DNA of 62,328 nt, the filler included. It is 11 parts of 11 records of this genome, joined end to end, with 100 filler letters (N's around TTAATTAATTAA, not from the genome) between each part and the next. Parts side by side here need not be neighbours in the genome. Positions count along the whole stretch, not along the records: positions 24,382 to 28,558 come from SRR15195285_493; 10 more parts are not named here. One strand, given 5' to 3'. The notes under the pieces are model-generated. The model saw only the letters and a program-made list of their open reading frames with translations, made no database searches and was not told where the DNA came from. Of this stretch, positions 8,618-51,618 are shown one piece after another. Position 1 is the first letter of the stretch. Each line of letters begins with the position of its first letter. Both the position numbers and the translations under genes were made by a program.

Positions 8618-8990
8618 ACAACGCCCTCTGCCGGCCTTGTCTCCCCGGGGGGAGCGGGTCAGCTGCGGCTGGCGGCCACCGTCAGGATCCCCGACCCCAT
8701 CGACCGTCCATGGCTGCCCCACCGGTCTAGTCGACTCAGTCAGTGGGTCAGGATTCAATGCACAGGGGGGGGGGGGNNNNNNNNNNNNNNNNNNNNNNNN
8801 NNNNNNNNNNNNNNNNNNNNTTAATTAATTAANNNNNNNNNNNNNNNNNNNNNNNNNNNNNNNNNNNNNNNNNNNNATTGACTGGGGCGAAAAAGCGGAC
8901 TTTTCAAGCATACAGTTGACTGAGATGTGTCCCACCTCATAGAGCTGACTGCGGAGGTTCGACGACGGTACGGTACAGCGATCTGCCGCC

Positions 8991-16700: not shown

Positions 16701-19128
16701 GCTTCATAACCTAAAACTTCAGCATGGTGTGCTGCACCTTCGGGGAGTGCAGTAGTGTCGACTGAGACATTGAAACCTGCAATAAGAGACACCGCCCGTG
16801 TTCACAAAAGCATTACGCAATTGCATATATACTCGATGCTGATGTGTACATGCAATTCGTATGCGCAGCTCTGTGACCGCAAGTACAGCAAGTGCTACTG
16901 GAGAGGGAGAAAGGAGGTGGGTGCAGAAACATTCGTCTCAGTGTGACGTACCACGACCTGTGGCCATCAGCACCAAAGCTGATGGTACTTTGATCCAGTC
17001 CACGGTCGGCACAAGAAGTACATGAGACTCGAAATCAATCCGCAATTGGTTGTCGGATTTCATCACACGCGATCCTGTAGGCGCCGAGGTCTGGTCTTGC
17101 ATCCGCGGTGTAACGGAAACCATCACCTGCTGCGTCCCCATCTCGCATGGCTCTCGTAGGTAAATTCCTTTCTTAGGAGCGCCAGAGCCTGCGAACACAA
17201 CACCAGGTAGCAGAATTCATATAATCGATTATTGATTCTGCTCGCTGATCTATACTCGCTGCCCTTGTGAAGATGTCTCTGCTAGTTTCGTTTCGTCTAT
17301 TGGCTGCTTCGTTATTCTGCTCACCATGACCTGGCATGCTGACGCTGACGTCGTAGCTGATATCATCTGTCCACTTATCCGCACGCGACTTGAGGTATTC
17401 GAAGCACGCATCGACCTACTCCAGCGTAATCCAGCGCACAGCGCAGCAGTTCAGCAGTTCGGTCGTGTATGACTTTTCGCGAAGAATCCAGCAACGGGGA
17501 TCAAGTACCTGGACGATGCCGTGGCCCACCTCCGAGCGGTCGGCGCCCGGCAGCGGCTTTGCGGTGCTGATCAACGCGTGCCGCACGCGCGCTGGTGTTG
17601 CGGGGATTGAATGAGCCTTGCACGCAGAAAGAACCAGAGCGACACAGCCTGTGAGGTTCGGAGATGACATCGAGGTACCTGAGGTTCGACACAGCCCGTG
17701 AGGTTAGAAAATGACACCCAGGTACCTGAGGTTAGGAGATGACTCGATACCGTTCATCAGCTGGCCGCGTTGTAGAGTCCAGGTTGGGACTGATGTGATA
17801 GCTGCCCCAGGCGCAGTAAGCTGTACGCCTTGAGAGCCGTCCTGAGCAGGCCCACGGCTGGACCATGTCGTCATGGTACTCGGCACCTTCTCAAGCATCG
17901 AGTACTCAGCCTCCATCATTGCTGGTGTCACGTACGCTCCACAAGAGATAATCTCTTCACAAGTCCCACCCGGTGCCCCGACAGTCGTGTATGCGGGCCC
18001 GTTGTTCCCCGCAGAGGATATAAAGATGATGCCGTGCTTGTTGACCACCTCGGCGGCCTTCTCAAGGAAGCGCCCGGCATTTGGTGGCGATGCGGCCTCA
18101 CCGAAGGAAAGATTGATGAGGTCACAGCCATTGTCCAGCACAGTGCGCAGCCCGCGGACAAGCGCCGAAGCAGTCTCCATACCGTCCAGCCGCGAGTCAC
18201 CGATCTTCACAGCGACAATCTGCGCACCGGGCGCCACCCCGTTGAACTCGGGGGCATCTTCGTGGCATGCGCCCACGATGCCGGCGACATGCGTGCCATG
18301 AGCCCCACTGTCGCATACGACGCTGAGCACGCTGCCTTCGTCAAAGATATTGATGGCATAGTTCATCAGCGTACCTGCAGGGTCGAGATTCTCGCCCGTG
18401 AACGTCCCGTACTTGCGTTCTGCGCGGAAGTTCGTGAGTGGCTCGAGGGCCGAGACGTCACCATCATCAGTCGTGCCGACCACCGCTCGCCAGTCAGAGC
18501 CGTCGTGCCACACGACCGCATCAATCACGGGCCCCAAATCCTTCACTATCGACTCTGCACTCTCCAGCTGCTCAAGGTGCGCCTTGAGCTCCCGCTGTGT
18601 GGCCTTGTCCTCCTCGCTGAGGGGTTTGCTGACGGGATGGGCCACCTCGAACTCGCTCAACACGGTGCGTGCCTTAGTGGTGGCGGCCCGCTGCGCCTCA
18701 TCGAAAAATTTCTTGCGCGCCTTCTTGATCCGGCTCGCTAGCCCACCAGGAATGACATCGTAGAGCGGTTTCGCCCCAACTCTGAAGTTGCCGGTCGGAT
18801 TCGACCACCCGTCGTTGAGGGTGATTGTGCGCCCTGACTTGCCCTCGATGGTGAGCTTGCCGTCCGCCACTTTCGCTTCCCGCACGGTGCTCGTGTCGAT
18901 GTCGCCCGAGCCAGTGGCGTCCACAACGTCGATGACCTTCGGCCTGCCGTCTGGGCACGTCGCGTTCAGCCCAGGAGCCCCCGGGTCCGTACCCGTGTCG
19001 AGAATCGCCACCACCACATTCCGTCCGTCGCACTCCGGATACTTCGACAGGAACATCTCCGCCTGCGTGCTGGCCGTCGGCACCCGCACCGAGTCCGCAG
19101 GGAACGTCGCCGTCGGCTGCTCCGCCAT
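13763..19128 (-). CDS. TPP2: Tripeptidyl-peptidase II (subtilisin S8 family); multi-intron
   Basis: Catalytic motifs VAILDTG, HGTHVAGI, SAGNNGP and MNG|TSMSSPN (restored by splicing 17750-17679); C-terminus LMKELGWEHL..RFPEDRQLF-stop typical of TPPII. Confidence 0.95.
17679..17750 (-). other. 72-nt intron made of degenerate tandem copies of the downstream exon
   Basis: Intron gtatcgagtcatctcctaacctcag|gtacctgggtgtcattttctaacctcacgggctgtgtcgaacctcag vs exon gtacctcgatgtcatctccgaacctcacaggctgtgtc; contains an in-frame TAA. Confidence 0.9.
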
Positions 19129-19638
19129 CCTCCCACCTGAATACGTCTGTACGCGAATTCCGCTGCTGCGACGCCTCCAGCACGGCGCACGGGCGCTGCT
19201 CTGCAACACGAGGTGGCTGCGCCCGGATCCAGTAGAGCGCCTCGCCAGCGTCGGCAGTAGCGAGCCTCGCGAGCACCGAATTGTGAACCAAAACTGTTGC
19301 ACACGATGGCCAACAGGCACTCTACACGTACCCAGTATATATAGATAGTAGGCAGAGACTGCGCACGGACAGCCGTGTACACCTGAGGACGACTATCACT
19401 GCTCCTGGCGGTCCCTCGCGCTCGCGATCAGCCAATCGCGCCGCGCGCCGCGCCCCCGCGCGCGGCGCGGGCGCGGGGGCACGCGTGCTGACTCGGGCCG
19501 GGGACATTGGCCATGACAATGTGATTTAGCGGTCGGGGNNNNNNNNNNNNNNNNNNNNNNNNNNNNNNNNNNNNNNNNNNNNTTAATTAATTAANNNNNN
19601 NNNNNNNNNNNNNNNNNNNNNNNNNNNNNNNNNNNNNN

Positions 19639-19669: not shown

Positions 19670-20024
19670 ATTTGGATTCTCATTCATTCCCGCAAAGGAA
19701 GACAAGTTGAACGTCACCATTGATTGGGCCTCTGAATCGCCATTCGCAGTGAAATAAATGCAACATCCTATCGCTGTGGCGGCCGCCGCCTTGCCGCGGC
19801 ATCGCGCGTGAATGCAAGATCGCCGCGCCGGCGCGACCGCGACTCGCTGCCGCGCGCGCGGGGCAGTCGGTGGGGCCGGGCATGCGCACGCTGTCGCTGA
19901 TCAGGCTGCGCGCGTGGAGCGAGCCGCCGAGCCCTCTCCGCTCGAGCCCGCTTCCCGCCGCCGGCGAGCCAGAAGCTCTATTTTCGGCTTAGTGCTTTTC
20001 TGTATTTGCGCCAGCTCGGGGGGC

Positions 20025-22882
20025 ATGTCCTTTTTGCTGTGCATCAGTGCGAGCTTGGCCACCTGTTCGTCTGCACCGGTCGAGTCAACCTCAGTTCCCA
20101 CGATCGTGCAGGGCCTCGTGGGCGAGTACACACGGCAGCCGATGCGGGTGCCAAGCAACCAGACAGTCGGGGCCCCGCTCCTCGGAAACGGAGAGTTTGG
20201 TGTTGTCATCGGCGGCCGGCCAGCGGACAATAACTTGACATTCTTCCTCGGCTCGAACCAGTTTTGGTCCGCTCCCACCAGTGGGATTTCACAGTGTGGG
20301 TTCCGCGATGGCGACAATCTTTACTTCGAGCTAGGTGGTGGCGGTGGTGTGCGCCAGATAGGTGGTGTGACCATTAGTGCACCTGGTTTTGTCAACGCCG
20401 GCCGTACGAAGCCAGAGCAGTATCGCGCCTGGCAGCGGATGGCGAACGCCACAGCCGCCACTCGGCACACGCGTGGCACTGATGGGCGTGCTCTGCTCAC
20501 AGATTCATATGTTCACGCCGATCAAAATTTGCTCGTTACACGAATAAAGGTCGTAGATAACTCCAGCGTTGCTGGCCGCAAGAGTGAACCGCTTCGGATC
20601 GTGGTGTGGACAGTGGGATCAGGCATCGGCCCGGCTCACAGCTATCCGAACAAGCAAATACGCCTGCCACCGAATATTAGTGACCCGAGCTTGATCCCAG
20701 CTTGCGCGTTCCCGACTCGTGCTGGGTGCATCTCATCGTCTTCAACGCGATCAACATTGTTCACAGACGGAGCCTCCGCATGCAAAGATGGGGCTGCCGT
20801 GCTCGGAGCAGGTGTGAGCAGAATGGCTGGATTTCCCTTTCAACAAACGCCACACACCAATGTCACAGTCATCGCTGCAGCGGTCGGGGCGTTCATGCGG
20901 TCTTCTGGCACTTCGACAGTCAACGGCAGCGGCAATGGAGGTAGCTCACCTACAATGTCAACAGCACCAGCGGCACTGCGCGATATTGTGGCTGAACGTG
21001 GCAGCAGTGGTGGTGATCGAGTGTCTTTTACGTTGGACCTTGCTCCTGGCGATGAGCTTTTGCTCACTACATCCCTCGTCAGCAACCGCGACGCTAACTG
21101 GACAGATCCCATGCAAGCTGCTGCGCAGCATGTATATGGTCTTGACAAGCACGGTGTAATTGAGCGGCTTGACGAGCAGCATCGTTTGTGGTGGGCTAAA
21201 TTTTGGAGCAAATCTTATGTGCACATTGAGACAAATCGGCCGATGTTCGACCAGGGAGTCCACCGGTTCTACTACGGTGCGCTGCATGTGCTGGCATCGG
21301 CATCGCGATCTGGAAAAGTGGCCCCGGGGTTGTACGGACCATTCGTTACGTGCGACCACATGCTGTGGGGCGATGGTGCGTTTGGTGTGGCCATCATTGG
21401 TTGCAGTGTTTGCAGTACAAACATAATCCTAGTACATCATTAACCGATTGTGCATCATTGTTGGTAGATTTTCACCTCAACTACAATTTTCAGGCAGCGT
21501 TCTACGGGGCTGTCGGGTCAAACCGGCCTGAACTTGCAGATTCCTTCTTCCCACCCGTGCTTAACCACGTTCCAATTGCTCGAACAAATGCACACAACGA
21601 CTTTGGCTGTCCCGGAGTCGTCTTTGACGGGGCAATTGGTCCTCGAGGTATGCTGGCTACTCATGTAGGAGACATGGGTCAGAGGAGCGATGCTGCGTTC
21701 GCCGCTGTGAATTTTGTATCACGTTGGTTGTACACACGAGACACTGGATTTCTGCTGGATGACTTCGAGACAGGACAACTAGGTTGGGCTAGGACTGCGG
21801 TAACCCCGTACGACTTGCTGAAAGATATAGCTGCATTTTGGAATTGCTACCTTGTGCGGAACTCCACGACCGGTATGTATCAGCTAGACGATATCAACGA
21901 CTGCGTTGGCGAGATTTGCCAAGACAATACAGATGGAATCGATGTCAATCCAGTTGGCGAGCTGGCGCTGCTGCGCTACACCTTGGCAGGTCTAATTGAT
22001 GCCTCCGTTGCATTGGATCGTGACGCTGCTCTCCGTTCTAAGTGGACTGAGATGCTGTGCCATCTCGCGCCATACCCGTCCAAGACTCTGCCAAATGGTG
22101 GCGGTCCGGTTTTTCTTGAAGTGATCAAGCGAAACTCGTCGATTGCTCCGGCCATGATGCCCACTGCACCAGCAGGAATTGACAGTTCGATGGCGATCTG
22201 GCCTGGTGGTGCGACAGTCTCGGCGCTAGACCGATGCGCCTTGCCGTACTCGACGGTGCAAGAGATGATCAGAAACGGGCTTGCCAACACCTCTGAAACA
22301 TTTGGTGGGGACAGCTATCAAACACCAGCTGCTGCGATCTATGCGCGGTACAACAGGACGGCATTGTTTCCAGCGCTAGAACGAGGCTTGCAGCCCTGCA
22401 CTGAGCAATGCAACGCCATGTACATGTGTGGCGAGCTCTGTTTGCATCCGAGTCTGTATCTGGATCAGCATAACGGCGGAGGTCTCGAGACAGCTGGTGC
22501 TATTGAGTGGGTGCATGCAATGCTACTACAATCGCGCGATGGGGTGTTGCGGGTATTCGCGTGGCTACCTGAGGGCACTCGCGCTGCCTCGTTTGTACGA
22601 CTGCGAGCCGTCGGTGCTTTCTTGGTGTCTGCAAACTACACAGCGACCCATGGTGTGGCGTCACCCGTCGTTGTCCAGAGCGAGTCCAAGCAACGGTGCA
22701 TAATGGAAGAGTTGCAAGGATGGGAAGGTAAAAACGTGACTGTGTGCTGCGGGCCGCAGCAAATTGAGGCGCACAGACGTTTGGACGATCTCGGGCGTAA
22801 ACTGTGGTCATGGTCGACAGAGGCGAAGGGCACTTACCGAGTGCACAAGGATGTAGCAGCTTGTATTGAACAGGTTGAATAA
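20025..22882 (+). CDS. Secreted GH95-like (alpha/alpha)6 glycoside hydrolase
   Basis: Signal peptide; APLLGNGEFG; PGLYGPF..WGD|DFHLNYNFQAAFYG (intron 21376-21467); AMLLQSRDGVLRVFAWLP..FVRLRAVGAFLVSA. Confidence 0.75.
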
Positions 22883-24281: not shown

Positions 24282-24834
24282 NNNNNNNNNNNNNNNNNNN
24301 NNNNNNNNNNNNNNNNNNNNNNNNNTTAATTAATTAANNNNNNNNNNNNNNNNNNNNNNNNNNNNNNNNNNNNNNNNNNNNACTCGTAATTAAGCGCTTA
24401 GAACGATAGTAATTACTCTTATATTAATCGTGTAATGAGGAAGTGTGGGCGGCAGACGCAGTGGAATTTTCGGCGACGTTCGCTCTGATGGGTGGACGGT
24501 TGGTGGGCTGACCATGTCTATGCTCTGATTCATGAAGTACATGAAGTACATGAAGTTTTGGTTTGTTTTGACCATATTCGTTTTTGGTTTTGATAGATTT
24601 CTGCCACAAATTCGACCAAAGTGTATATCGCCCGATCGCGCATCGCTGTACTATTGTGCGCAGTGGTGGCGGAGGCCGTATGGTTCATGGTTGCTCGACG
24701 CCGAGGCCTTTGTGCTTGGGTGTACCGACGCCACTCCCAGTCGACCGCGACTGTGAAGTTGCAGTGTGGTTGTCGTTGGACGAACAGATTGTGATTACTT
24801 CATGATTTCATGAACGATTACAAGAGCTGCCTTA

Positions 24835-27800
24835 CTATGCGCAACCGCAACTTGTTGACACGTTCAAAGTACGGCCACTCTCGCCCGCATCCTGTGTAGC
24901 GTGCCCCACCGAAACCAGCGTTGCGATGATCGACGTTGCTCCACCTCCGACCATGGTCGAGAACTTCGTCAAAGTACGCTTATCGACAACAAGCCCAAAG
25001 ATCTTGACTGTAGCAAGATAGTCGTCGCGTCAAAAGCAACCCATTCATCAGTCAAATGTGTAGTATCAAGAGCGTGGCGGTACTGACATACTATGAACTG
25101 AAAGGTGTTGGGCGAAGTGACCTACAGCCAAGTCCTTGTCCTGAGTTCAGATTCATCAGCGACTCACGCAGCGCTGCACAACGATTCTTGTGTGGCATAC
25201 CACCCAAAAAGCTCACGTCATTTAGTTGATCGAGAAGTTCGTCACAAGAGGACGAAACCTGGGCCGGGGCAGCCAAAATCATCAGAGGCAGCACTGCTGT
25301 CCCAGCCAGTCCTATTTTTATCGCTAGAGTATCAGTTGCGACCGCATATGGCACCGCGCAGAGCGTAAATGCCCAGAACCCCAGCATCGTCGCACCCATC
25401 GCTGTGCCCTACCACGCCACAATGCAATTCAGCTATTCCACAGAACGCTTGCAGGCAATCGAACAGGTTCAGACTCACCCAGGCCGACAGCACCTTGAGC
25501 GTCGAGACAATCATCGTGCATGGCTGCTGGACGCGTGTTATCCAAGTCGCGCGCCCGGTGTCTTCCCCGAGGTATTGTTGCGCGGCAAGTGGGCCAAGAT
25601 CCTTCATCAGATCATCCACCGCATCTTGCGCCAGCGTCACGGCAAGGCACAGAGACAATTGCCAGGCCGGGTAGACTACTGAAAAGAGCATAGCAGCTGG
25701 CACCCAACATATCACCAGCAAGACTGCGTAGACGGTCTGCATCGTGTTCGAAATACAGCCCACGGGTGGAAAGAAAAACTGCGCAATACCACCGTCCAGT
25801 TTTTCGCTGAGTATGTCATCGTCTGAAGACCACAAATGATCGGCTATAATTGAAACGAAAGCGACCAATGTGAAAACCACCAAAACGAGCAATGTTGCGG
25901 CAAGCAAAATCGTAATGTAGAAGCAGATGTGCAGCCAAGCAATCGCATTGGCGTCGAGTTCCACGCGCTCGACACCAATTCCATCCGCCCTCAGCCTCGA
26001 AGTCGACGTATGCGAAAGCAACGCAATCCCACCGAGCGACACAACCGGGAAACTACCTGTCTTTGTACCCTCTTGAACAGAGGGATCAGTGACAAAAGCA
26101 ATCGCCCCAGCTTCGTTCTTGGATTTCATCCTCAGCTCTTTTTCGTACTGCTGCTGCGCAACGTCATGTAGGTGGTGTACAGAGAATTTCGCCATGTTCG
26201 GCACCATCAGGTGATGCAAAGAAACATTCTTGGTGGCCGGTATCATTTCGTAGGTGAGCAGTTGCCACTTGAGACCAAAAAGCGACCTATCGTACCAGAA
26301 CCGAGAGGAATATTCTGTGATGAATGCGTCTAGAGCCTGGGAGGCCTTGTCTAGTTCGGCTTGGAGTTGCTTCTTACTCTGGGAACGAAACAACCGGAAC
26401 CCCGTGTCATCCTGCGCCAGCTCCTGTTCTTGCACCAGCTCCACCAAGCGGACTTTTTCGGCGCTGAGCATTTCATACTTACGCAATTTTTCGAGTGCCT
26501 TGGCTATACACTCAGGAGTCTCCATGGTTACAATGCCGTAATGTGCAATCGGTGCTGACTGAGAATCGCCTGCTTGCGTAATTCTCTCATCTAGCGTGCC
26601 GTCATCGTCGTCACTGCGTTGCAGCACGTAGACTCGAGCGCTGGCCACTGTTCCAACTTTAGAAAACATGTCCCGCAGCTCTTCGTCATTCATACTTTCC
26701 AGAACGTTAGTCACGTACAGCGTTCTCCCCTCGTAGCTCATGGTGCCGAAGGCCTTGTCAATCAACTCGATACTTGTATTCGAGAATCGCGGACGTCGGG
26801 CGCGCATAGGCATGCGGCGAACAGATTCAGAATGAGTAGGGGATAAATGAGGCAGCTCCCCGTGAGATTCCTTGGAAGCGGTTGATGGTATCGTTTCGGT
26901 CAGGGTCATCGTTGTAGTGTCGCTGAGATCAGCGTCGAACTTCTCACCTGCAACTGTAACCTGCGCGCTCTGCATACCATCGACAGCTGACTTCGACAGC
27001 TGACTTTGCGCTGCTTCATCAAAATCTTTCCAGCCACTTTCATCGTCAGGTTTGAACTGCCAGTGTAATCCTGGGACGGTTGCAGGCAGTCCACTGACCA
27101 AGTTGTCTGTGCTGTTTTCGCTTTGTTCGTTCGCAGTCGAACGCTCGGGCGGTTTGTCCGAGGCAGCGTCACTTTGATCTCCCGCAAGTGATGTTGGCGC
27201 CAGGGCCCATTTCCTGAGCTGATCAAGAGTCACCTTTGATTTATCGCAATCTTGGAAGCTTGGATGGGTGCGGATGAAGCCAGTTTCTTGCTCTGAAAAT
27301 GTCCGCCGCTTCAGGCCCAAGAGTTCCGTGCTGCCTGGTATATAGTCACTTGTGCGCATCCAGCTGAGCTCATCTAGTCCCTGTCGCTCGGTGTACAGAA
27401 CCCCGAGCTCACGGATCAGCAGCTCGTCCCGAAGAGTCTCGCGTGTGGCTTCCTTTTGAAGATCGATGTCAGCCCATTCCAGCTGAATATTTTCTACCGG
27501 TGGTGGTGACGGCGGTGGCGGCGGCGATCGTGGTGACAACGTCCCCGGCCGACTCGATGTTCTCACACTGCGGTTGCTCGGAGAGGTGGCACGCAGGTCA
27601 TTCCTGGCCTTCCTGGCCTTCCTCTTTTTGCGTTGGGTCTTCATCTCCACCAAATATTGTTGCTCGTGCTCTACAAGTTCCGTTCCACGGTGGGCGCCAC
27701 GAACTGCCTCTACAAGCCCCCTGAACTGGAAGAACCACGCACATGTGAAGACAAAGATACCGACCCCGAGCATTGCATCGACAGGTGCACTCACGGTGGC

Positions 27801-28256
27801 ACAGCCGTATGCGAATTCTAAGACGTAGCCAACTGAAGCCACGAATGGCGCGGCAACCATTAAGGCGCGGACTACCATGTTCAGCGATTTTTTCTGCAAG
27901 ACGACAGAGATCCATCCGTCAAACCACTCCGGCGCCAGTTCGACTTTTGAGCGTGTGCCGTGGTGAGTCTGCTCTCCCGCAGCATTGTCCCACCCTTCAG
28001 TCACCAGCCCTGCGTGTACGCTCTCCTCAACGCCACAGGACAGCTCGCTGTACCCCGTTGATCCGTCCCGTAGTCTCTGCGATGTCAAAATCACAGTGCA
28101 TGAGACAGTATGGGCGATAGGCAGGAAAACCTCCCTTCAAAGTTGGAGTGACGGAGAATTTAGATGGACTGCTGCGATGAGACGCTATAGTGTAGACACA
28201 GAGAGCTGACAGGTCATTCCACTCACGGATCGACTGGCTGAGTCCACACTGCGCAT
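24835..28256 (-). CDS. Gustatory-receptor-like 7TM (7TMIC/DUF3537-like) protein with inserted WWE and RRM domains
   Basis: gccATG 28256; introns 28226-28077, 25478-25409, 25125-25008. Two N-terminal TMs, WWE-like WQFKPDDESGWKDFD..VTVAGEKFDADL, RRM RTLYVTNV..LRDMFSKVGTV..YGIVTM, further TMs, and PAQVSSSCDELLDQLN..GQGLGFKIFGLVVDKRTL. Confidence 0.75.
28057..28234 (-). mobile_element. Spliced MITE-like element, copy A (178 bp)
   Basis: 10-bp TIR GTCGATCCGT/ACGGATCAAC (9/10); donor GTGAGT at 28226, acceptor CGCAG at 28077; homologous to 43756-43924. Confidence 0.85.
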
Positions 28257-28806
28257 GGCCCTGCTGCTCGTCCGCGTGTGTTCTCGCACCACCCCACCGC
28301 TTGCAGCCCTGCAGGCCGTCGGGCGGCTTTCCACACTGCGTACTCCCCGAATTACACGTCACGTGTATGTACGCCGGTAGTATCCCGGCCAGAGAGCTCC
28401 CTGCACCCCCCTGCTCCGTCGGTCTTACGTACGCACGCGTCGTGAGGGATCCGGATAGCCTCACTAGCTAGGGATAGCAGCATACGTAGCACGAGACGAT
28501 AGCTGTGTCCACAGCGATGAAGTACAAGGTGATATAGCGGTATTTTGCCTCATTTGGGNNNNNNNNNNNNNNNNNNNNNNNNNNNNNNNNNNNNNNNNNN
28601 NNTTAATTAATTAANNNNNNNNNNNNNNNNNNNNNNNNNNNNNNNNNNNNNNNNNNNNTCCTCGCGCGCGCGCTCGCGTTGCGCGTCGCGCGCGGCGGTG
28701 GGCGTCGCGATACAATTCATCGATGTGGCATATTCCTGTATGTACGGCTTGAGGACCTCGATGCAGTGGAGATAGCAGGTCCTGCAGCCGGCTCAGCTGC
28801 CATCAC

Positions 28807-31800
28807 ATGCCAGGGGTGCCGCGACGACCAGCACGGTTGCTGTCCTTCCTGCTACTGCTGCTCCCTAATGCTGCAGAAGCACCAGAAGACGCCGCTCCGG
28901 ACAGCAGCGCGCAGCAGGAGCTGCAGGAGCCATCGTGCTATGTCAGGACCGCCGTGCTGCGAAAGTTCGACGGCCCAGCTGCGGCTGCAGGTGTCCGGTA
29001 TCTAGCGGGACTAGATATGTGCCGGCGGGCAGACGGAGGTGGGGCATTGGTGACGGTGCATTTTCAGCTGGCAGACGGTTGCAAGCTCTTGGCGGAGCTG
29101 CACGAGCAGCTCACACCGCGCAACGATCCTGCGGATGCGCTCGGTGCTCCAGGAGCTTGCGCGGATCTAGTCGCGCAGTACGGCTGCGCAGGTGCTACGC
29201 CCCCCGCAGCTTTACGGGACAAGACACGCGGCCAGTCACTGGCTGAGCTATGCCCGGCGTCGTGTCCGTTGCAGGGGCGCAATGCTTCCGCGAATAAAGC
29301 GACAGCTGCAGAGCTCCTTCGGTCTCCGCTGACCCAGCCAGCGCTTGGCTGCACTAAGACCACACCAACCTGTCCACGTGCGGTGCTCATATCGCTTCCG
29401 ACGGGTGGGCCCGCCCGCAGCTACCTGCTGCGTGTGTACGCCACCCCCGGTGCATCTGATGGCACCGAGGTACCGATGGTTGTGGAGCTGACCTTGGCTG
29501 TGGCGCCTGTGTCTTGGGGAGCACGTTTCTATGTAAGCAATGTAGACAAAGACGTGTCCGAGGCAGCATCAGCGATGGGGGCTGAACTGCCCCATCGCAG
29601 CGCGCTCCTGCCGATACCATTTTCTGCGTTTGAAGCGCACGATGTAGTACTGACATCGCCATTGCGCCGGCACCTCCGGATCGGGACACGGTACAATTTC
29701 GAGGTGACTTTGAGAGATCATGCGCAGGCCGTCGCCTTGGTGCCAGCGAAGGGTGCGAAAGGAATGGCGCGGAATGGGCAGCTATTGCGTTGGATGCATC
29801 TCGCGCCAGCCGAGGGTGTGGCGCCGAAGGCAGGGATTGTTCGATGGAGAGGGAGCGCTGTCATCAAGGCGGCGGGCGGGCTTCTTATGATCATGGCTCA
29901 GTTTGGTAGCGGCAATTACGATGCACTAGTCCAGTTTGAAGTAACAGATGATTTGCAGCTTGTGGATGGTTCGACTGGGGCACCAGGCAACCAAGCGTGG
30001 AAGACACCTGTGCGGATAATACCTACACCAGCGTCTATGGGTGATCTTGGTATTCAGCCAATTTCTCATCCTTACAGCGAAATCTTCCTAGCCGGAATGC
30101 ACATGACCATGACGCTGGCGACGAAACGTCCTACACGTTTACGAATTCAGACATCCAGCGAGCAGCAACACACGCTGCACACAGATCCACCATCAGGCGT
30201 GGAGGACCAAGCCTCCAAGATATGTGAGTTGGGAGAGGACAGATGCAATTCTGTTGGTGTCATATGGGAACAGCCGAGAGTGCTTGTCACGCACAATGCA
30301 GCCAACACGGAGCATACGATATACGTTCACTGGGACCACCCAGACGCACAAGTGGCCAGTGATGGTGACAGCGGCAATGACGGTGGTCGGCTGCTGCAAG
30401 TGTATGCAGCAGATCTTGTGACAGCTGACGATGTCACGGGGCTACAGCAAGGCTGGCCGCAGGTGCTTGAGTACTCCGTGTGGGTAGCTGCGCACAAGCA
30501 TGGGAGTGTAGCTGACACTGGCGGAACAATTCTGAGTGGACTCGCATCCTCACTTGGTGGATGGTTATCTGGATCCTTGGATTCCGGCCCACCGGCTTTT
30601 GTTCCACTGAAACGAGGGAACTCTGGCAATCCAATCTCAGTGGACCGGCACCTACAGAACCTCCCTACAAATATCAGCAACTCTGTCGAAAGCTTGGTAA
30701 GCCGCAAGTCTCTCAGGTGGATGAACATCAGCTGCCTTGCTGCACCCGTAGAGTTCATACGTTGACAACAAGAAATGTGTGCGTGACAGGCGACAGGACT
30801 TTGCGTCTGGGATGAACCAACTTGGAACTACCGCTCCATCTTTGGTTGGGTTACGAAGAAGATTGAGTGAGAGCGGCAGTCCTCTAACTATGACTCATCA
30901 TCTCCTTCGCTTTTCAGCATCATACATGTAATGGGCTGCATGTCGCTTGAGCATGAGGTCTTATTTGACTGTTTCACCATTATGATCATTGTCGCTTGAT
31001 GGTGGGTTGCGTGATGATGCAGATACGACGAGCCATTGCTCAGAGTCTTGGAAGAAGATCCGATAGCACGGCGGACGATTCGGCCGATGGAGCCGCAGGA
31101 GGTCCTGGCACAACGCCGTACTGTATGTTCGGGCTATGCAGCATTGACAGTCGCGCTATGCCTACTGTGTGAAATTCCAGCGTATAGCGTCACAGGCCAT
31201 GCGAAATCGAATGCGAGAATAGGCACACCCTCATCGCAGCGGCTTGGCCACGCTTGGGTGGCGGTGCATCTAGATGGGCGCTGGATGTTGAGTGATCCAA
31301 CGTGGGCAAGTGCTGCCATCGACGATGAGAGCATGACGCAGCATGAGCGATGGGATGGCTCGGATGAGGTAGCAGATGATGGCCAAGCTGCTGATGATAT
31401 GGGGAGCGGGACCGAAAGTGTCGTCGACGACTATTACTATCTACCGTCCGCAGCCGAGCTGCTACCTACGCACCTCCCAGAAAATCCGCAATGGCAGCTA
31501 CTGGATACTTACAATCCACCGATTGATCGAGAGCAATGTGAGTCAGCATACGAGTAGAATTTTCTTCCAGATCGCACTGAACGACTGTGCCAAAAAACTT
31601 GGTCGTACTTGTAGATCAAGTTTTCGTGCATCTCTACCCTCAAATTAGCTCACTGAGACATTGCGTTCTCTCAACTGCATCGACTCAATCGTGGTGCAGG
31701 GGACAATCTACCGAAGGTGAAGCCATCATTTTGGAAGGCGGGACTCTCCCCTTTGACAATCGCACGTGGTGATTCTAACGGGAGCCCTGAATCTGTAGCC

Positions 31801-33705
31801 GCGATGGAGCAGGCAGAGAGCGCATGGGAGCTCTGTGAGGCATCTGCGGGCGGACGCGATGGATGGCGCGGTCTGTTCTTCAGTCTTGGGCAATGGGCAC
31901 CGGTGCACTGCACACGTCTTCATACAGCTGGACGACGTCTGTACCCTCCAGTTGCATCAGCTTTCACTGGCACTTCCGGAGAGTGGGAAGTTGTCCGATT
32001 TGGACTGCGGCCTGGTGCACCCAGAGAGATCGACCTGTTGCCTAAGGTGTGGTCTGTTTCTGGAGCAATATCTGCCGACACAGAAGAGGCGGAAGAGGAC
32101 TACATGCACGACAAGCATCGGCAACAGGAACAGGCATCTGGCTGGCGCAGCCTCGCTTCTGTACGTAGAGAAAACGACGAGTTCTCCGTCTACGTCGTCC
32201 TTCCAACGCGAGGAATATATGTGCTGCGTATCTACGTGGCGTTGGCAGCCCGAGCTGCAGACCACAGCGGAAATGAGAAAGTTGTTTCATCGACGCCAGG
32301 CATGAATCAAACAATGCAGTATGCACACGCCATTGACTTTCTACTCGAGGCGTCGGCTCCGTTGCCTCACTGGGTCGACTGTAGTGATTGTCTGTACCCA
32401 CGAATGTTTGGAGCTGCGGGTGCAGTGACGCTGCATGCTCCGCGCCAGCGAATCTTGCGGGTAGGTCATGACTACAATCTAGTGTTGGAGCTTCCATCGC
32501 ACGCTCGTGAGCAGACTCTCGTTGTCCGCGATGCAGGCACCGGACGCGAGGTGCAGTTGCATTGTACGACAATCGGTACACTGCTTGGGGTGCCCAAGTT
32601 CGTTCGAATGGCGTACGCTGGCTCCTTTCGGTGCGCAAAAGAAGGGGTGGTTACAGTCTTCACACGTTGGCGAGGAGACCGGACGATGCGTGCAGTGATG
32701 GAATTCGAATGTCGCATCGATGGCCACGCCCCGCTTCCAGGGACCGGTGGTGTCATGCCACCATCCAATGTGGTAGACGATGCGACGACGTCGATACGTT
32801 GCGAACGTCTTGCTTGTCTGCCAGTGCTACCAAATGTTGCTTTTATTCAAGATGCTGGCGTAAGCCTTGGATTGTTGCTCATGAGCCACACAGCCGCTGC
32901 GTGGAGCGTGATGACGGCGGAGACGGAGCGTATAACCTTTTCGACCGCAGTGCCGAGCACTGTATCAGCGCAGCTCAAGGAAACAGGAGTTTCTGACGCA
33001 GCACAAGATCCGGGTGTGTACACCTTCGTGAGTTCTAGCGCAGGCGGACGGACACATGAGGTGGAGCTGCGCTGTCGCCGACCGTGGCGGTATGAACTGT
33101 TGATTTTCGCTGGGCCGCGAATGGATGCTTCTCCACGCAGTCTGCCACTAGTTGTGCAGTATACTGTCGATGCGACGCCCACAGGGCTCGATCAAGAGAG
33201 TTCTCGCAGTGCTAGTGGGATTGTCGCAAAGCGACAGGCGCAGCAGTTCCCTAGGTTGTTTGCAGAGTTCAGCAGCTGTGACTGCCAGCTTTTGCAGCCA
33301 CGTATCGGGAAGCTCGCGGCCAGCCCGCAAGCAAGGGCCAACTTCACGCTGATTCTAGGTGTTGAGTGTGAGGCGACAGGGGTTGCCGTGATTCAAGCTG
33401 GGGGCGACGGTACCGCTGCGAAATGGACGCACTTGCAGGCAGAAATTGCCGGTGCCGAGGATAGCTACTCCGTCGCTTCTGTCTCTGATGCTCGTAGGGT
33501 CAGTAGTGCCAGTGAGAGCAATCATCAAGATACCGCGACCGAGGGAGCAAGACCCTTGCGGTGGACTGGTATAGTGGAAAAATTGGAGCCGGGTGAAGTT
33601 CACATCGCAGTCCAGTTGGCTGCGACGAAAACAGGAGAAGGGCGACAACAAGCGCGCGGTCACTCGGGCGAGTACCGCCACTTCGTTGAGTACATGGTAG
33701 AGTAG
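28807..33705 (+). CDS. Signal-peptide-bearing kyphoscoliosis-peptidase/hillarin-like transglutaminase-fold protein with Ig-like repeats
   Basis: LLSFLLLLLPNAA signal; triad VCSGYA / GHAWVAV / LSDPTW; YYYLPSAAELLPTHLPENPQWQLL; GT-AG introns near 30707, 30867 and 31538-31699. Confidence 0.8.
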
Positions 33706-39072: not shown

Positions 39073-39179
39073 NNNNNNNNNNNNNNNNNNNNNNNNNNNN
39101 NNNNNNNNNNNNNNNNTTAATTAATTAANNNNNNNNNNNNNNNNNNNNNNNNNNNNNNNNNNNNNNNNNNNNGGGGGGG

Positions 39180-42740: not shown

Positions 42741-43536
42741 TCAGCATGCGCAGTCTCCGCCACCACCGGCTGGCTTGGCATCGCTCACGTTGATAATGCT
42801 AGGGATCTCAACCTGCTCCTCCTCGCTCTCCTGCTTCAGCGCCTGCATCGCAATATTCCCGTGTCAGCGCTGTTCCCGCGCAGACAACGACACGATCGGC
42901 AGGCGGTGGGCACTCTGGCAAGGCAGCGCGTGGGCGCACATTTTTGGCGATCTCCATGAATGCCTGCTCAACGTTGGTGTTGTCCTTTGCAGAGGTCTCG
43001 AAGCAGGGGATGTTGCCCTTAGATGTACACCATGTCTGGGCGCGCTTGAACGCCACCTGCCGGTTTTCAAGATCGCTCTTGTTGCCCAGCACCACGAACG
43101 GGAAGTTCTCAGGATCCCGCGGCCCCGCCTGGATCAGGAATTCGTCCCGCCAGCTTTCACAGTTGTCGAACGACTTGAGGTTTGTCAAGTCGTACACAAG
43201 CACGCACGCGTCGGCACCGCGGTAGAACGCGACTCCGAGGCTCTGGAACCGTTCCTGGCCAGCAGTGTCCCAAATCTGCGCGGCCGCACACATCGCTCGT
43301 TAGAAACCCCTCAAGCCGAAGCATTGACCACCTGTGTCACCGGCGTCTCGCGCTCCCAGTGCCAGCCAGCCCCCGTGCTCGCCGCGTTGCTGCCACCGCA
43401 GTGCGACGCACCTGCATCGTGACGAGACGCTCATCCACGACGACCTCCTTGGTGAGGAAGTCAGCACCGATCGTCGCCTTGTACTGGGAGCTGAACTTCT
43501 TGTTCACATACTGGTTCATCAGCGACGTCTTGCCGA
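42741..43536 (-). CDS. RAB7: Rab7 small GTPase, 5'-truncated
   Basis: [62 protein letters not shown]; introns 43411-43276 and 42939-42843; C-terminal CAC prenylation motif. Confidence 0.97.
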
Positions 43537-43755: not shown

Positions 43756-43924
43756 GTTGATCCGTAAGTGGACCGTGCTGCTCAGCTCTCTCTATGTATA
43801 GCGTCTCGTCGCGGCCGTCAGCAGTCGAATCCCTTCGGCACTCTACAGTGACAGTTGTGGTTTTACGCCCGTACTGTCTCATACGCTGTGATTTGGCGCC
43901 GCAGAGACTACGGGACGGATCAAC
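43756..43924 (+). mobile_element. Spliced MITE-like element, copy B (169 bp), upstream of the 44092 ATG
   Basis: Perfect 10-bp TIR GTTGATCCGT/ACGGATCAAC; donor GTAAGT 43764; acceptor CGCAG 43904; last 25 nt identical to copy A. Confidence 0.85.
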
Positions 43925-44091
43925 TGTCTGTACCACAGCCTGCCCTCGGCTTGCCCGCTGCAGCACCACACGATGCGGTGACTGACCAGTGGCAGTGAGT
44001 GATCTCGTCGGTCAACACCGCGAGGACCTCGTGGGCAGCACCGTAGGGACAGTGTGGAGCGGTGTCGCAGCTGTCTAGAGGACGCGACGAG

Positions 44092-47000
44092 ATGCCGAGG
44101 CATGGGCGCACGACCGTGGGTGTGGCGGGGCGCGGGGCTGGGCGTGGGCGGGAGCTGGAAGAGGCGTGGCGCTGCCTGCGCACAACCAAGGTCCGGGCGG
44201 CATACTCGCGAGATAGTCAGCGGATTGGGGTGATCGAGCGTGGCGAGCTGGTCAAGTCCATCGAAGAGCGCACAGACGAGCTCGGCAGGCCGCAGCATCG
44301 TCTCAGCTGGCCCCTGAAGGGATGGGTGAGTGAGACTACCAGCAACGGTGACGTGGTGTTCTGTTCAGCTGAGACGGACGACCTTTCATCTAGCAATGAC
44401 GATATGATTGAGACACGCCCCGATAGCCGTCGACGATCTCAGAGCACTGCGGTGACCCGCGGCCGCCGGCAGCCCTCGCCGCAATCGAGAACGAATCGGC
44501 ACGAGGCTGAGCAGTTCGTCTGCCTGAACCGCGCGCCGCTACGCGTTGGATTGGACATGCTGTCGGAGCGAGCTGGGTTCGTCGAGCCAGGCGATATTAT
44601 TAGAGTGCTAGATGTCCGATTCAACGATAAGGGGCAGCGACAGCTACGCTGCGAAGCTGGATGGGTGATGGAATACGGCTGGACAGGAACGCAAATGTTC
44701 CAGCCGCTCGACCCAACCGCGGCGATGGGCGATTCCTCATCTTCGTCCGAGGGCGTGCAAATAGCAATGGTTGTAGAACGGGAGCTTTCTCGTCGTCAGT
44801 CACGCTCGCCGAGTCCCGTGCGTCACCGGCGTCGTTCGAGTTCGCGCTCACCGTCGTCACCGGCACGCCGCGGCTCGTTGAGCGCACGCAGACGACGTGC
44901 TGAGCAACGCAGCCCTGGGGGGCGCAGCATGTCTGCAGGACGGGCACGAAGGCGTACGCGGCGCCTCTCTGCCGTCGGAAGCGAGCACAGCGACGTCTCT
45001 GGTGACGAAAGCTTGGTGGATGGCAGTCACACAGAGGCACAAGCACGTGAGTATTTTGCAACAATGCTAGGGCTGGCGGGAGCAATCACAGACAGTCATA
45101 TCGACAAAGCGATGGGCATGGCAGCGGAGCGCGGGCTAGTTAACGCCGCGCAGTGCTCGCGGATAAAGAGGCAGGCAGGACGTGCGAAGATCGTGACTGC
45201 ATTCAACATCATGAATGCGGCAGGGTCAGTGCAGCACCGCCGCTCTCGCACCGCGGCCGTGGCAGAAGCGCAGCCTGTTCGGCGCACGTTGAGCCCGAGG
45301 TCACAGCAACGTTTTGTTTCACGGATGCAGCAGGACGCTCAGCAGCGCGAGGAGTATCTTGATCAGTTGCGGGACCTGCACTCTGAGCAGCACTCGCGAC
45401 GAGCGAAATACATCGACCGGCGCGCGCACGAGGACTTGCTGGCACGCATGGAAGCGCACACACACCAACGCGAAGAGGAGTTGGAGCTATATCGAAGTAG
45501 ACCTGACCTAGTGGACCCGCACCTTGTATTTCAGCCAACTATCAACAGACGGGTGCCCAGCACTCGAAGGAGATCTTCTCCGGCACGCTCTCCAATGCGG
45601 CGTGCGGAAAGTCGCCACCTGGACCAAATGAACGCAGCCAGAGCCAGGGCTGCTTCCATAAATCGGAACACGCACTTGCGCCGCCCAAAATCACCACGCC
45701 GGACTAATTCGCCTGAGTTGGTTCCAATTTCAGACAAAAGCGTTCTGCGGGAACAAATTATCGAGATTTTTGAGCTGCACAATCCAGCTAAGCTGGACAG
45801 CGTGGATACTTTAATCGAGAAGTATGGCGCGGAGCCATTGCTGCGTCGGATGGAAGATAAGTACTCACGCACGCTGGAACCAATTGAGAGATCGCTGCGG
45901 GTGCGATCGCCAAAGCAGTTGCAGAGCCCTCGTGGCGGAGCGACGTTGAGTCCAAAGAATCGGCGTGTTACCTCGGCTCGGCGGCGGCAGCCTGTCAACA
46001 AGGGCACGCTGAAAACAGCCTCGGTCTCGCGCAATCTACCTACGCATGCAAGCCCAGGTCGCACCCGAGGTGATTCGCCAGGGCGGCAGCAAGGCGATAG
46101 CGTCTCGACGCGCGCAGAGGTATCGCACGACGACTACTCGGATGAATCAGCTGAAAGGATCGCGCTGAGCCGAAGCCGTAGACGGTTGCGCCCAGATTCA
46201 GCGGCTCGTGCAACTTCAGCGAGCAAGTCTCGTGCAACTTCAGCGAGCAAGTCGTCGAGCCGTCGTCGTTCTCCGTCACCGAAGGCGAGGGGGAAACTGC
46301 GGGCGAAGGATAGAGACCGGAGGCCTGCACGCAACGCGCCACCAGCAAGAAGCAAGGAAAGTGGCTTTCGCGCAATGCCAAGGCTCACACAGGATCAGAA
46401 ACAGGTCATAAATCTCTGTGTGAGTATGGTGGACCGCCACGGCACAGGCTTTGAGGCCAAGCTTCGGAATCATGCATCCGAGGATCCTCTGCTCGAGTTT
46501 TTCCTCGACAAAACCTCAGATGCGTGGAAACACTACCATCAGATTTTGAACGACATAGACCGTCGCAAACCATCCAACTTCAAGCAATACCTGGAGAGCA
46601 TGGTGCTGACTGATGTGAGCGCGGTCAGGCGCGCCCTCGAATGTGAACGTATCGAATCTATGGATGACTGGGATGCCTTGGATGAAGCTGAAATAGATGA
46701 CCTCCTGCGATTCTTATCGTCGGCATCGAACATCAAGGATCGAGACCTTGGAATCATCGAGGGCCACTTGCGTGGAGATTTGCATGCGTTCGACAATTTT
46801 GCACGCCGCCAATCAACCTCTCCATCCAGAAACCGTCGCAAGGACGTAAGAGGATCGTATCCAGAACCAGAGCCTGAACCTGAACCGGAGTACAGGAGCC
46901 CTGTGCACGAAGACGGTCGATCTGCTGGAACACTAGGTACAAGATCTAGTGCCAGTGGCGGCAGCAGGCACATACCTGCTCGCACTGGCTCATCTAAGTC

Positions 47001-48564
47001 CGTGATACCTCCGTGTGACGGTAAGCTTTACGTAAAAATCGTGGGTGGGCACGAGCTATTACTGCCTCGACAAGAGATGATAGCGATCGAGTTCAAACTC
47101 GGTACCAAAGGTGGCAAGCAGACGACTGTTCCCGTACTGTCAAATGGCGGAAAGCCCGAATGGAATCAGACGCTGGAATTTCCTGTAACGCACACGGAAA
47201 AAATTAAGGAGTATGAGCTCAAGGTGAACGTTTCTGGGTACAAATCCATTCTCGGCACGGGAGATTTTGTCGGCGAAACTACGATAAAGCTCGACGAAGA
47301 GTTTGCGACAAAGGATTGGAATGCCGAACTCACTCGCGAATTTTCATTGTGGGATCCGAAGAAGAAAGTGAAAGCAAACAAGCCAGCTCGTGAAGTCGCC
47401 TGGCGACGTCAAAATGGCCCCACCTGGGGTGAAAATTGCTTTCATGGCAAGTTGGCAGTTCAGCTGTGGTTCGTTGGCTTTGAGAAAGCAGAGGAGGCAT
47501 TCGCAATGGGCAAAGACGTAAGCGGCTGCTGGGAGGCTGTTGGTACAGACAACGGCACAGCAGTCCCGTTGCAACGATTTCATTTGCAGCAGCACGCGGA
47601 CTCTTCAGTGACTGGCCACCAGCACGAAAGCCCGAGGGCGCGTGTCGATTTTGCAATCGAGAATGCCACGCTTGACGGGCAGCAACTGAAGTTCGATCAA
47701 GTACTCAGCCAAGATAGACATGGGAGATCCGGACGTTACAGCACCGTGTACTGGTCTGGTACACTGACTAAGAAAACCGGTGTTTTGCACTTCGAAGGGA
47801 CATGGGCTGGTGCCAAGAATGGGAGATTTCACGCGACTCTGACACGTCCGAGTGTTGACGATCCTAGGGTTGGAAGTCAGCAGCTTCGGGAACATATGGA
47901 TGCGGTTGGTGTCCGAGATCTGGACCTTGTCATGGACTTCCTGGAACGGTCTAACGTTGCTAACCTCGATAAATGGGTTGACCTAGGGACTGAAGACAGG
48001 GAAGACATTTTGGCAGCGCTGGGCAGGGAGCGACGTGTAAGACGTGATGATATCATAGTACTGAAGTCGGCAAAAGCATGGCACAGACAAACCTCATCGG
48101 GCAAAGTACCGACAGCGATTCCCCGAATCTTCGAATGCATTAATGGCGACGGGGACGCCAGACGCTTATTTCAACGATACGACAGGGATGGCAATGGCTA
48201 TCTGAGCCCCTCTGAGCTGGCAGCGGCGCTGCGTGGCATGCAGCTAGACCTAAGTGATGACGATGTCGATGAGATAGTGGCGTTCATGGATACAGACGAC
48301 GACGGTTACGTCTCGCTTATTGAGTTTATGGATAGGTCTTACATAGGCAATCTTGCGTACGTGCGCGAAAAGCTCATCGATCGGGCTCCAGACGCACATG
48401 GTGCACCCAGCTTTAGGGGGCTATTCAACAGGCTTGACAGGAATGGTGATGGCGAGCTCAACTTCGACGAGTTCATGAAAGCAGTGCGGAGTCGCAGTGG
48501 GTGCGACATACAGGAAAGTGAGCTCTCGAGAAACCAGCTGCAGCAGCTATTTGATCATATCGAC
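44092..48564 (+). CDS. Large mosaic protein: 2 SH3b-like, RS-rich, SURP, 2 SAM-like, C2, EF-hands (3'-truncated)
   Basis: ~1490-aa open frame; SURP-like VINLCVSMVDRHGTGFEAKLR..LEFFLDKTSDAWKHY; C2 GKLYVKIVGGHEL..PEWNQTLEF..DFVGETTIKL; EF DRDGNGYLSPSEL, DTDDDGYVSLIEF, DRNGDGELNFDEF. Confidence 0.85.
46205..46252 (+). repeat. Perfect 24-bp in-frame tandem duplication (RATSASKS x2)
   Basis: ctcgtgcaacttcagcgagcaagt twice. Confidence 0.95.
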
Positions 48565-50610: not shown

Positions 50611-51618
50611 TCAAATTTTGCTCCTGCTGCTACTGCTTCCCGTTGCACTGCGGAGCTCAGGCTGAGTGTACTCGTTGAAGGACAGCCTCGACGAAGGGCA
50701 CCCGGAGACTGGTACCAGCTTGTGCCACTCGGCATCGTACGAAAGTACCCGCACCAGCGGGGGTACGACCCGAACAGCCAACCCGATCCTGCGTTGTGAG
50801 GTGATATTGGGCGCTGAGTGATGCAGCGTGCGCTCATTAAACAAAATAGCCTCTCCTGCGCGCATCGGAACGGCCACGGCGTCCGATGGGTTATACGCGG
50901 CTGGGTCTGCTCCCTTGACGAAGTTGGATGGAAGCTCGTCGTCTCGGCCGAGTGCTACATGCGGCACCACAGTTTGGTGAGACCCTGGGATAATCTGCAC
51001 GCAGCCCATCTCAGGTGTACTGTCGGTAACCGCTATCCATGCTGAAATCACCACCGCCGGCTCGAGAGGCCAGTAGTTGGCGTCCCTGAAGGGTCCAACA
51101 CCAGCGGTGGTCAAGGTTGCACATTGCAGCGAACGGGCAGAAGTGGTGCTTCCTCACTGGTGGAATGGGATCTCGCGTTGCAGTGGACTGCCCGAGTCGA
51201 CTCCATCCTTGACGAAGAAATTCGTTCGCCAGATAGACAGGTCGCCTCCGAGCAAGCTCGCCATCCGCCCTACAATTGCCCCGTGCGACGCCAGCTCCCA
51301 CACCGCTGCCTCGTGCTGGTGTGCATTGTGCCCCTCATTTTCCTCTTCGTCGAAGATTCGCTCGAGCTCCGCGCGCCGCTTGGCCATGCTGTCTGTACCT
51401 GCACCCCGAAACCGTGTCACTTTAGCAATCAAGTAGTGCATAACCGAACGACTGCACTGCAAGCCCAGTGACTGCTGGCGCATGAGCTCATATACTGAGC
51501 CAACGCGCAGGACGAATTCACTACACGCGGTGACAGACGTACTCATGAGCTCGAATGGAGGCAAATAGCCTCGCTCGTGAAATTGCAGCACTTCTGCTGC
51601 GCTCAGCGAGACTGCCAT
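50611..51618 (-). CDS. PhyH-family Fe(II)/2-oxoglutarate dioxygenase
   Basis: FHERGYL; IWRTNFFVK; PFHQ|DANYWPL (HxD across an intron); SAWIAVTD..GCVQIIPGSH; TLHHSAPN..RRIG. Confidence 0.9.

Follow-up and report, generated by a model that had tools for sequence, protein, structure and literature searches.

A multi-copy inverted-repeat element with candidate splice sites at the 5' ends of two genes of an uncultured marine eukaryote

The stretch of DNA analyzed here, referred to as the window, measures 62,328 bases and joins 11 short contigs, each of 3.0-10.7 kb with a G+C content of 53-61%. Two of these contigs carry a copy of the same short inverted-repeat element at the 5' end of a long open reading frame (ORF). 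Copy A lies on the contig spanning positions 24382-28558 (contig A), next to a gene called here gene A, and copy B on the contig spanning 43637-48564, next to gene B. Contig A was found in marine or seawater metagenome runs belonging to 13 studies, and the gene A protein of the window is labeled 'eukprot' as its source. The element is a multi-copy, mobile, non-autonomous miniature inverted-repeat transposable element (MITE) of 170-180 bp with inverted-repeat ends, residing in an uncultured marine eukaryote. Both copies contain sequences resembling splice sites, and the MITE family, which is real, is plausibly of introner-like character. Among the sources of episodic intron gain, introners have the best support; the manner in which transposons become spliceable in the first place is an open question. 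The two copies, the ends of copy A and the adjacent genes are listed below (lengths in nucleotides, nt).

28057..28234, minus strand: copy A, 178 nt, oriented like the downstream gene; similarity to copy B starts and stops here
28225..28234, minus strand: 5' terminal inverted repeat of copy A, GTCGATCCGT, matching the reverse complement of 28057-28066 at 9/10 positions
28057..28066, minus strand: 3' terminal inverted repeat of copy A, ACGGATCAAC, as read on the minus strand
43756..43924, plus strand: copy B, 169 nt, oriented like the downstream ORF, whose first ATG (44092) lies 168 nt further on
25335..28136, minus strand: long ORF of gene A, with RRM and WWE domains; 934 codons (stop to stop)
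28254..28256, minus strand: upstream ATG, in frame with the long ORF of gene A if 28226..28077 (150 nt) is removed
44047..48564, plus strand: long ORF of gene B, coding for C2 and EF-hand domains; it exceeds 1506 codons and runs off the contig end

The initial annotation, made from the letters alone, had placed a 178-bp element with 10-bp terminal inverted repeats (TIRs) at 28057-28234, and this description holds, with nine of the ten repeat positions matching. It had also pointed to a diverged second copy at 43756-43924 that keeps the TIRs, both splice-site motifs and an identical 3' stretch of 25 nt, all of which we recovered. The termini of copy B, GTTGATCCGT at the start and ACGGATCAAC at the end, form a perfect 10/10 inverted match. 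The two copies can be aligned from end to end, with 72% identity over 184 columns (blastn, E = 5e-18), and their flanks are unrelated and give no alignment. Within the window, significant nhmmer matches were limited to these two places, the terminal motif is confined to them, and the 25-nt 3' end they share occurs nowhere else even when three mismatches are allowed; 0 of 100 shuffles gave a match to it. TIRs at the exact ends, occurrence at unrelated loci and a short length without transposase are thus all present, as in a MITE. A target-site duplication (TSD), looked for as a direct repeat of 2-8 nt, is visible at neither copy, as had been remarked at the outset, and a short one may have eroded.

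The coding capacity of the element is slight. Stop codons interrupt five of the six frames of each copy over their 169-178 nt. The fully open frame of copy A, 59 residues long, had 15 weak hits among 1.84 billion protein representatives, at 27-39% identity and several of them short stretches in large proteins; the best (E = 6e-11, 33%) fell in repeat proteins, and no element copy was found among these representatives by way of this peptide. A transposase locus with the same TIRs had been envisaged as a partner; a scan of 35 ORFs of the window matched no transposase family, nor does the terminal motif occur in the window outside the two copies. Rfam RNA families gave no match over 27900-28558, and no relic of a dinoflagellate-type spliced leader was matched in the window.

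The mobility of the element is documented by the comparison of contig A with four sequencing runs, two from RNA libraries (X15 and X16) and two from DNA (X1 and X2). Ten contigs (three from X15, one from X1 and six from X2) match exactly up to 28057 and then continue into other flanks, and the consensus agreement beyond this point is so low (0.52-0.56) that the flanks must differ from one another. Position 28057 is therefore a true element boundary, and several further copies exist in these communities, which disposes of the case, raised at the start, that the window's two copies are the only ones. Word depth tells the same story: over 28022-28161 it reaches 14.2 in X15, 18 in X16, 6.6 in X1 and 19.3 in X2, three to five times that of neighboring bins (about 2-6 across the runs, about 3-6 in X15, X16 and X2). 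Further contigs share only 28057-28089 or 28088-28126 before diverging. In these other metagenome copies the 3' third is shared and the middle is divergent, with loose ends at 28088-28092 and 28126-28132, which suggests a family whose ends are conserved and whose core varies. The element occupies the gene A locus in DNA contigs of two studies as well (X1 records 4 and 7, X2 record 32), and no DNA contig of X1 or X2 shows an empty site there.

Could the two copies instead owe their likeness to chance, to segmental duplication or to an artefact of assembly? Such origins would sit well with the presence of only two copies in the window, with the lack of a TSD and with the failure to find an autonomous partner. 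They do not account for an alignment of this significance between unrelated flanks, for a perfect 10-nt inverted repeat placed at the very ends of the homology (copy B), for contigs of independent runs from two studies that stop matching exactly at 28057, or for the recurrence of the copy A insertion, which is seen both in a JGI protein call (P0003, described below) and in DNA contigs from two studies. The A/B alignment, the blastn and nhmmer results and the contig ends at 28057 effectively refute a non-mobile origin, to which we leave a vanishingly small probability. Pattern scans for further copies gave 0 hits in JGI metagenome contigs, 0 in IMG/VR and, in the genome contigs of GTDB, 0 hits in one scan and two in another, neither of them a true copy. 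These two hits, in Chthonomonas-type metagenome-assembled genomes, are chance matches that have nothing in common with the element beyond the search pattern.

The feature that sets this element apart is a set of splice-like signals, located as follows.

28221..28226, minus strand: candidate 5' splice site GTGAGT of copy A, read directly; the upstream exon would end at 28227
28100..28109, minus strand: conserved block ACTGTCTCAT, identical in copies A and B, 23-32 nt upstream of the candidate acceptor
28077..28081, minus strand: candidate 3' splice site CGCAG of copy A; the exon would resume at 28076
43764..43769, plus strand: candidate 5' splice site GTAAGT of copy B
43900..43904, plus strand: candidate 3' splice site CGCAG of copy B, giving a candidate intron at 43764-43904 (141 nt)

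The positions are equivalent in the two copies: GTRAGT occupies element bases 9-14 and CGCAG lies 20 nt from the 3' end, so that the donor sits 8 nt and the acceptor 20 nt inside the element ends, just as first annotated (a donor at bases 9-10 of the left TIR and a CGCAG 20 nt inside the right end). A YAG at the acceptor position is found in both window copies and in four consensus strings drawn from the loose ends of other copies, one of which reads CGTAG; these strings are mixtures of copies and constitute weak evidence. Block ACTGTCTCAT also recurs in two such strings. By its position it could correspond to the branch-point zone, and it could equally be a subterminal region bound by transposase.

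For comparison, host introns were deduced from ORF continuity and domain matches. Four were obtained, all of them GT-AG and 72-162 nt long.

43411..43276, minus strand: intron of a Rab7-like gene, 136 nt, donor GTGCGT
42939..42843, minus strand: intron of the same Rab7-like gene, 97 nt, donor GTGCGC
31538..31699 (or ..31657), plus strand: intron of a transglutaminase/KY-like gene, 162 or 120 nt, donor GTGAGT
51157..51086, minus strand: intron of a PhyH-like gene, 72 nt, donor GTGAGG

The donor hexamer of copy A, GTGAGT, equals that deduced for the host intron at 31538, and the candidate introns, 150 nt long in A and 141 nt in B, stay inside the host range of 72-162 nt. The Rab7-like small GTPase gene occupies 42757-43536 on the minus strand, where it is cut by the contig end; GTGCGT is the donor of its first intron, and in both of its introns the AG is preceded by CTAAC or CTGAC at a distance of about 24 nt.

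These signals suggest the mechanism proposed in the initial annotation. Removal as an ordinary GT-AG intron would take out the bulk of the element, 150 nt in A and 141 nt in B; the sense-oriented element would itself supply a GTRAGT donor of host type, the conserved block in the branch zone and a YAG acceptor, and 8 + 20 nt of it would stay in the mRNA. For gene A, splicing would connect the ATG at 28256 with a conserved N-terminal coding region lacking an AUG of its own. That the element is spliced in this way, perhaps inefficiently, is the reading we favor, with somewhat less than even confidence. Splicing itself, the sites used and a 5'-end rule extending to the whole family are what we infer from the features described here.

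The reading frame of gene A offers an argument for this proposal. The first 27 codons of the long ORF and part of the next consist of element sequence. From the in-frame stop at 28139-28137 to the conserved Tyr codon at 28052-28050 there is no ATG, and the first in-frame ATG of the ORF, at 27878, lies 58 codons into the conserved region. An unspliced mRNA thus cannot encode the conserved tail from an AUG, and a conserved N-terminus without an in-frame ATG of its own argues for some splicing. The ATG at 28256 does fall in frame once 28226-28077 is removed, as had been predicted; in the unspliced sequence it opens an upstream ORF of 25 codons that ends within the element. The 920-residue ORF cited in the same context exists as a protein, P0001, which is the window's own gene A call and starts from a GTG inside the element; the stop-to-stop ORF has 934 codons.

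Proteins from elsewhere illuminate the same region. P0003, a JGI protein of 925 residues from the same species, has the same element-derived peptide as its first 14 residues. A relative with 65% identity is represented by P0002 (897 residues) and P0005 (922 residues), and its homology to gene A begins at the Tyr codon 28052-28050, 4 nt after the element. P0005 has 26 additional upstream residues, and these resemble the region upstream of gene A when it is translated in the frame of ATG 28256 (frame 2): the local score of 34 was reached by only 2 of 500 shuffles, against 492 and 155 of 500 for the scores of the other two frames. In P0005 this upstream-like peptide stands 10 residues before the conserved YSGLS... 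segment, which leaves no room for an element of about 170 nt; in the window the matching peptide stands 40 nt before the element. The relative therefore appears, at the protein level, to represent an empty orthologous site of the kind the initial annotation had proposed to align, and suggests a lineage-specific insertion. If splicing occurs as proposed, gene A would have acquired an upstream AUG and nine or ten new codons in place of the start that the relative apparently has right before the conserved segment.

Several observations weigh against the proposal. The first is the weakness of the frame as a criterion, since 68 in-frame combinations of ATG, donor and acceptor exist, all by way of one of four AGs; the in-frame property accordingly proves little, and the pair 28226/28077 is distinguished among the 68 by donor quality alone. 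The branch-like motif TTGAC of copy A lies only 9 nt from the AG, as against about 24-27 nt for such motifs in three host introns, and copy B has no TTGAC. Two in-frame Met codons of gene A, at 27878 and six codons on, have no counterpart in the relative; they fit a shift of the start to a downstream position after the insertion, and a downstream start is possible. The remaining objections concern the small number of copies and the RNA libraries.

The RNA-library evidence consists of assembled metatranscriptome contigs, in which rare forms drop out and DNA or pre-mRNA may be included. A contig counted as crossing a site when at least 31 letters extended beyond it, and stretches of contig A that the RNA libraries do not cover carry no weight. 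Within these limits, the joint 28226/28077 predicted by the initial annotation is absent from all four runs, the two RNA libraries included. Record 15 of X15 (27767-28130) passes unspliced through the acceptor and extends 54 letters past the site, and record 23 of X16 (28117-28286) passes unspliced through the donor. Record 20 of X16 (27928-28104) also enters the element, reaching 28 letters past the acceptor and so falling short of the 31-letter rule. Given the possible presence of DNA or pre-mRNA and the missing control intron, the unspliced contigs weigh against efficient splicing and do not exclude splicing; if splicing takes place, it may be inefficient because these RNA-library contigs are unspliced. 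Among 257 candidate short protein fragments over the N-terminus of gene A, sought as products of possible spliced transcripts, none reached E <= 0.01. One joint was seen in X15, running from 28128 to 28215 and skipping 86 nt (28129-28214); its AC..GT ends and its shorter side of 20 letters led us to reject it as a splice, and it probably reflects an internally deleted copy of the element located elsewhere.

These data bring in a simpler explanation, in which the element is a MITE that is not spliced at all, lying in 5' regions, where MITEs frequently insert, with incidental GT and AG motifs. Gene A would then start at 27878, its former N-terminal tail having turned into leader sequence, or be impaired, and copy B would belong to a promoter or leader. 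Ordinary MITEs near gene 5' ends are small, non-coding, multi-copy and gene-proximal and have terminal inverted repeats, and conserved termini with subterminal blocks are expected of any of them. Where RNA-library contigs lie over the element, they are unspliced at both sites, with no spliced joint, and the Met codons at 27878 and six codons on, lacking in the relative, would provide the new start. The N-terminal 58 residues are also somewhat less conserved than the following 60 (32/58 against 39/60 identical to the relative, as counted from the alignment). Proximity to gene 5' ends fits an unspliced and a spliced element alike and does not separate the two. Other observations are harder to reconcile with an absence of splicing: the unspliced leader would carry upstream ATGs (28256 and two more inside the element), the tail upstream of 27878 is still open in a conserved frame, with two of the three strain differences in 27878-28056 at third codon positions (a very small sample), and chance would rarely place a strong host-type donor, in sense orientation, in the first 14 nt of both copies (at a rough estimate, 1-8% per element). 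A donor and an acceptor of host consensus in a fixed orientation are not what one would expect of an ordinary MITE. We regard an unspliced element as a rather doubtful but serious possibility.

Removal could also proceed through other canonical sites, the element being enclosed in a larger 5' intron or providing its acceptor. The donor might for example be TGC|GTACGT at 28432 or GC|GTGCGT at 28436, following an ATG at 28483, and the acceptor might be one of those inside the element (28077 or 28075) or the TACAG at 28048 just beyond it. ATG 28483, donor 28432 and acceptor 28077 are indeed in frame, GTGCGT is the donor used by the first intron of the Rab7-like gene, and the upstream region is present in RNA-library contigs, X15 covering 28322-28480. 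That same contig (X15 record 16) is unspliced over 28436 and 28432, however, as X15 record 15 is over 28077. The N-terminal peptide of the relative resembles the frame of ATG 28256 and not that of ATG 28483, and the alignment of modeled N-termini with P0005 slightly favors ATG 28256 (scores of 123 and 116, against 114 and 106 for the other models), these differences being small. This route appears quite improbable to us.

The score of 123 belongs to yet another model, a non-canonical excision of the whole element guided by its inverted repeats, as in Amoebophrya. It would remove 177 nt (28235..28059 or 28234..28058), which keeps ATG 28256 in frame and yields the best, gap-free alignment with P0005, marginally better than the 116 obtained by removing 28226..28077. 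Mere absence of the element from the relative would produce a better alignment in any case. In both copies, the minimum-free-energy fold pairs the inverted repeats, and the Amoebophrya study describes introners with inverted repeats of 8-20 nt at the intron ends (PMC7789003). Against this, the predicted folds of the two copies are no more stable than those of shuffled sequences (z = 0.15 and -1.36), the host introns are GT-AG in four cases out of four, no direct repeat of 3-5 nt overlaps the element ends, and no such joint exists among the RNA or DNA contigs. We hold this excision to be very improbable.

Returning to splicing at the internal GT-AG sites, the question arises whether the element is tolerated mainly at gene 5' ends, as the initial annotation had supposed. 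Both copies are in sense orientation relative to the adjacent long ORF and lie in the 5' leader or the extreme 5' coding region. Only two copies could be studied, and sense orientation in two out of two has a chance probability of 0.25, which counts against giving the pattern much weight. In the single X1 contig leaving the element at 28057, an ATG-initiated open frame follows the element, in the same orientation, after 3 nt, and 30 nt of it are visible. In gene B, an in-frame stop precedes 44047 and short upstream ATGs soon terminate, which places copy B in the leader or promoter, where splicing would have no coding consequence. The contig provides 119 nt of sequence upstream of copy B, and the protein search found no relatives of the N-terminus of gene B. 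A second candidate leader intron of about 76 nt (GTGAGT ... TCGCAG) was noticed by eye between copy B and the ATG of gene B, at 43995-44070 on the plus strand. A putative family-wide rule of 5'-end position and sense orientation would rest on two copies. The broader hypothesis, that of a MITE family with a complete internal intron and inexact excision, which leaves a fixed 28-nt tag in the mRNA and survives only in 5' leaders and coding starts, seems unlikely to us at present.

The comparison with known introners places the element among several precedents. A survey reports 548 introner families (PMC9860276), and such surveys already list hundreds of them in organisms of this kind, including families with inverted ends but no target duplication and families that add bases to the transcript. 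Among them, an Aureococcus family that contains both splice sites lengthens the transcript by 12 bp, 4 nt of element and an 8-nt duplication (PMC9860276); the premise of the initial annotation that introners are normally spliced out cleanly is hence too strong. Our element resembles this family in being short and non-autonomous with both splice signals inside and, as a candidate only, in retaining part of its sequence after splicing, with residues gained relative to an ortholog without the insertion (PMC9860276). It differs in that the Aureococcus remnant is 12 nt, a multiple of three, with an 8-nt target duplication and documented splicing, whereas the candidate remnant here is 28 nt, there is no duplication and both copies are at 5' ends. 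Introner families in an Acanthoeca sp. genome assembled from Tara Oceans metagenomes have TIRs and no TSDs (PMC9860276); they share with our element the origin in metagenomes of uncultured marine eukaryotes, the TIRs without TSD, the GT donors and a size of at least about 100 nt. This likeness is one of descriptions, not of element sequences, and does not imply membership in a catalogued family.

The introner elements of Micromonas pusilla, as outlined in PMC11282704, generate a 3-nt target duplication. They are likewise MITE-like, with terminal inverted repeats, a splice site supplied by the element and a sense orientation in genes; unlike ours, they obtain the second splice site from the 3-nt duplication, are excised exactly and occur by the thousands throughout coding regions (PMC11282704). 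In Polarella, a preprint (10.1101/2020.10.14.339549) locates the splice sites variously inside the element, inside the duplication or across their boundary. Amoebophrya introners, which have inverted repeats at both ends of a repeated element in the genes of a marine protist, as here, use non-canonical sites at these repeats and have short direct repeats of 3-5 nt, and non-canonical introns make up more than 60% of those of their host (PMC7789003); our element differs by the GT-AG ends of all four host introns and by the lack of direct repeats.

By these standards, the splice signals are supplied by the element as far as its letters go, and the length of the mRNA, which introners leave unchanged or alter by whole codons, would change by 8 + 20 = 28 nt with no compensating target duplication. 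Elements that have internal splice sites and stay partly in the mRNA are already known as a kind. Novelty would lie in a remnant whose length is no multiple of three and in the resulting restriction to 5' leaders. For now, the finding extends the list of MITE families in marine eukaryotes by one that combines inverted ends and splice-like signals with a lack of target duplication. If the inexact excision is real, it could rewrite translation starts and N-termini, as gene A suggests, and would define an 'imperfect introner', between a plain MITE and an element generating clean introns; imperfect splicing and confinement to 5' leaders would then represent an intermediate stage and a route to new introns in 5' untranslated regions and new N-termini.

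Other features of gene A and of the window are of lesser bearing. A 15-nt insertion polymorphism in gene A at 25786-25787 occurs in the DNA runs X1 and X2 and in two adjacent pieces from the RNA library X15; it matches a stretch that is five residues longer in P0003, and at least two strains of the species are therefore present in the data. The proline-rich coding stretch of gene A at 27462-27601 shows a depth of 22-97 in all four runs and many loose ends, with a joint in X2 that goes back 37, and is read as low-complexity cross-matching or length variation. The contig junctions at 3028-3127, 8777-8876, 19539-19638, 24282-24381 and 28559-28658, and five more, are runs of N with short linkers. 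These joining runs and linkers between the 11 contigs also produced an apparent repeat family (D1) and most of the long inverted repeats, which have no biological meaning.

Elsewhere in the window, a tandem pair of 47-nt units, 87% alike, lies at 17640-17733, on the 3' edge of a subtilase/TPPII-like ORF (17707-19392). On the plus strand, 19812-22879 contains two long ORFs of 543 and 550 codons in different frames, overlapping by about 210 nt, the second with a GH95-like domain; the overlap could reflect an intron, a frameshift or an assembly error. The regions 31018-33702, 39174-42278 and 57869-61924 gave weak to moderate matches to a KY-like Ig plus transglutaminase core, a STIM1-type EF-hand, SAPC2_N and, below threshold, HEXIM. 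These are mostly animal or holozoan families, and the Atlas clusters nearest to the TPPII-like ORF are labeled Chordata. The domain matches and cluster labels together hint that the organism may be a holozoan such as a choanoflagellate.

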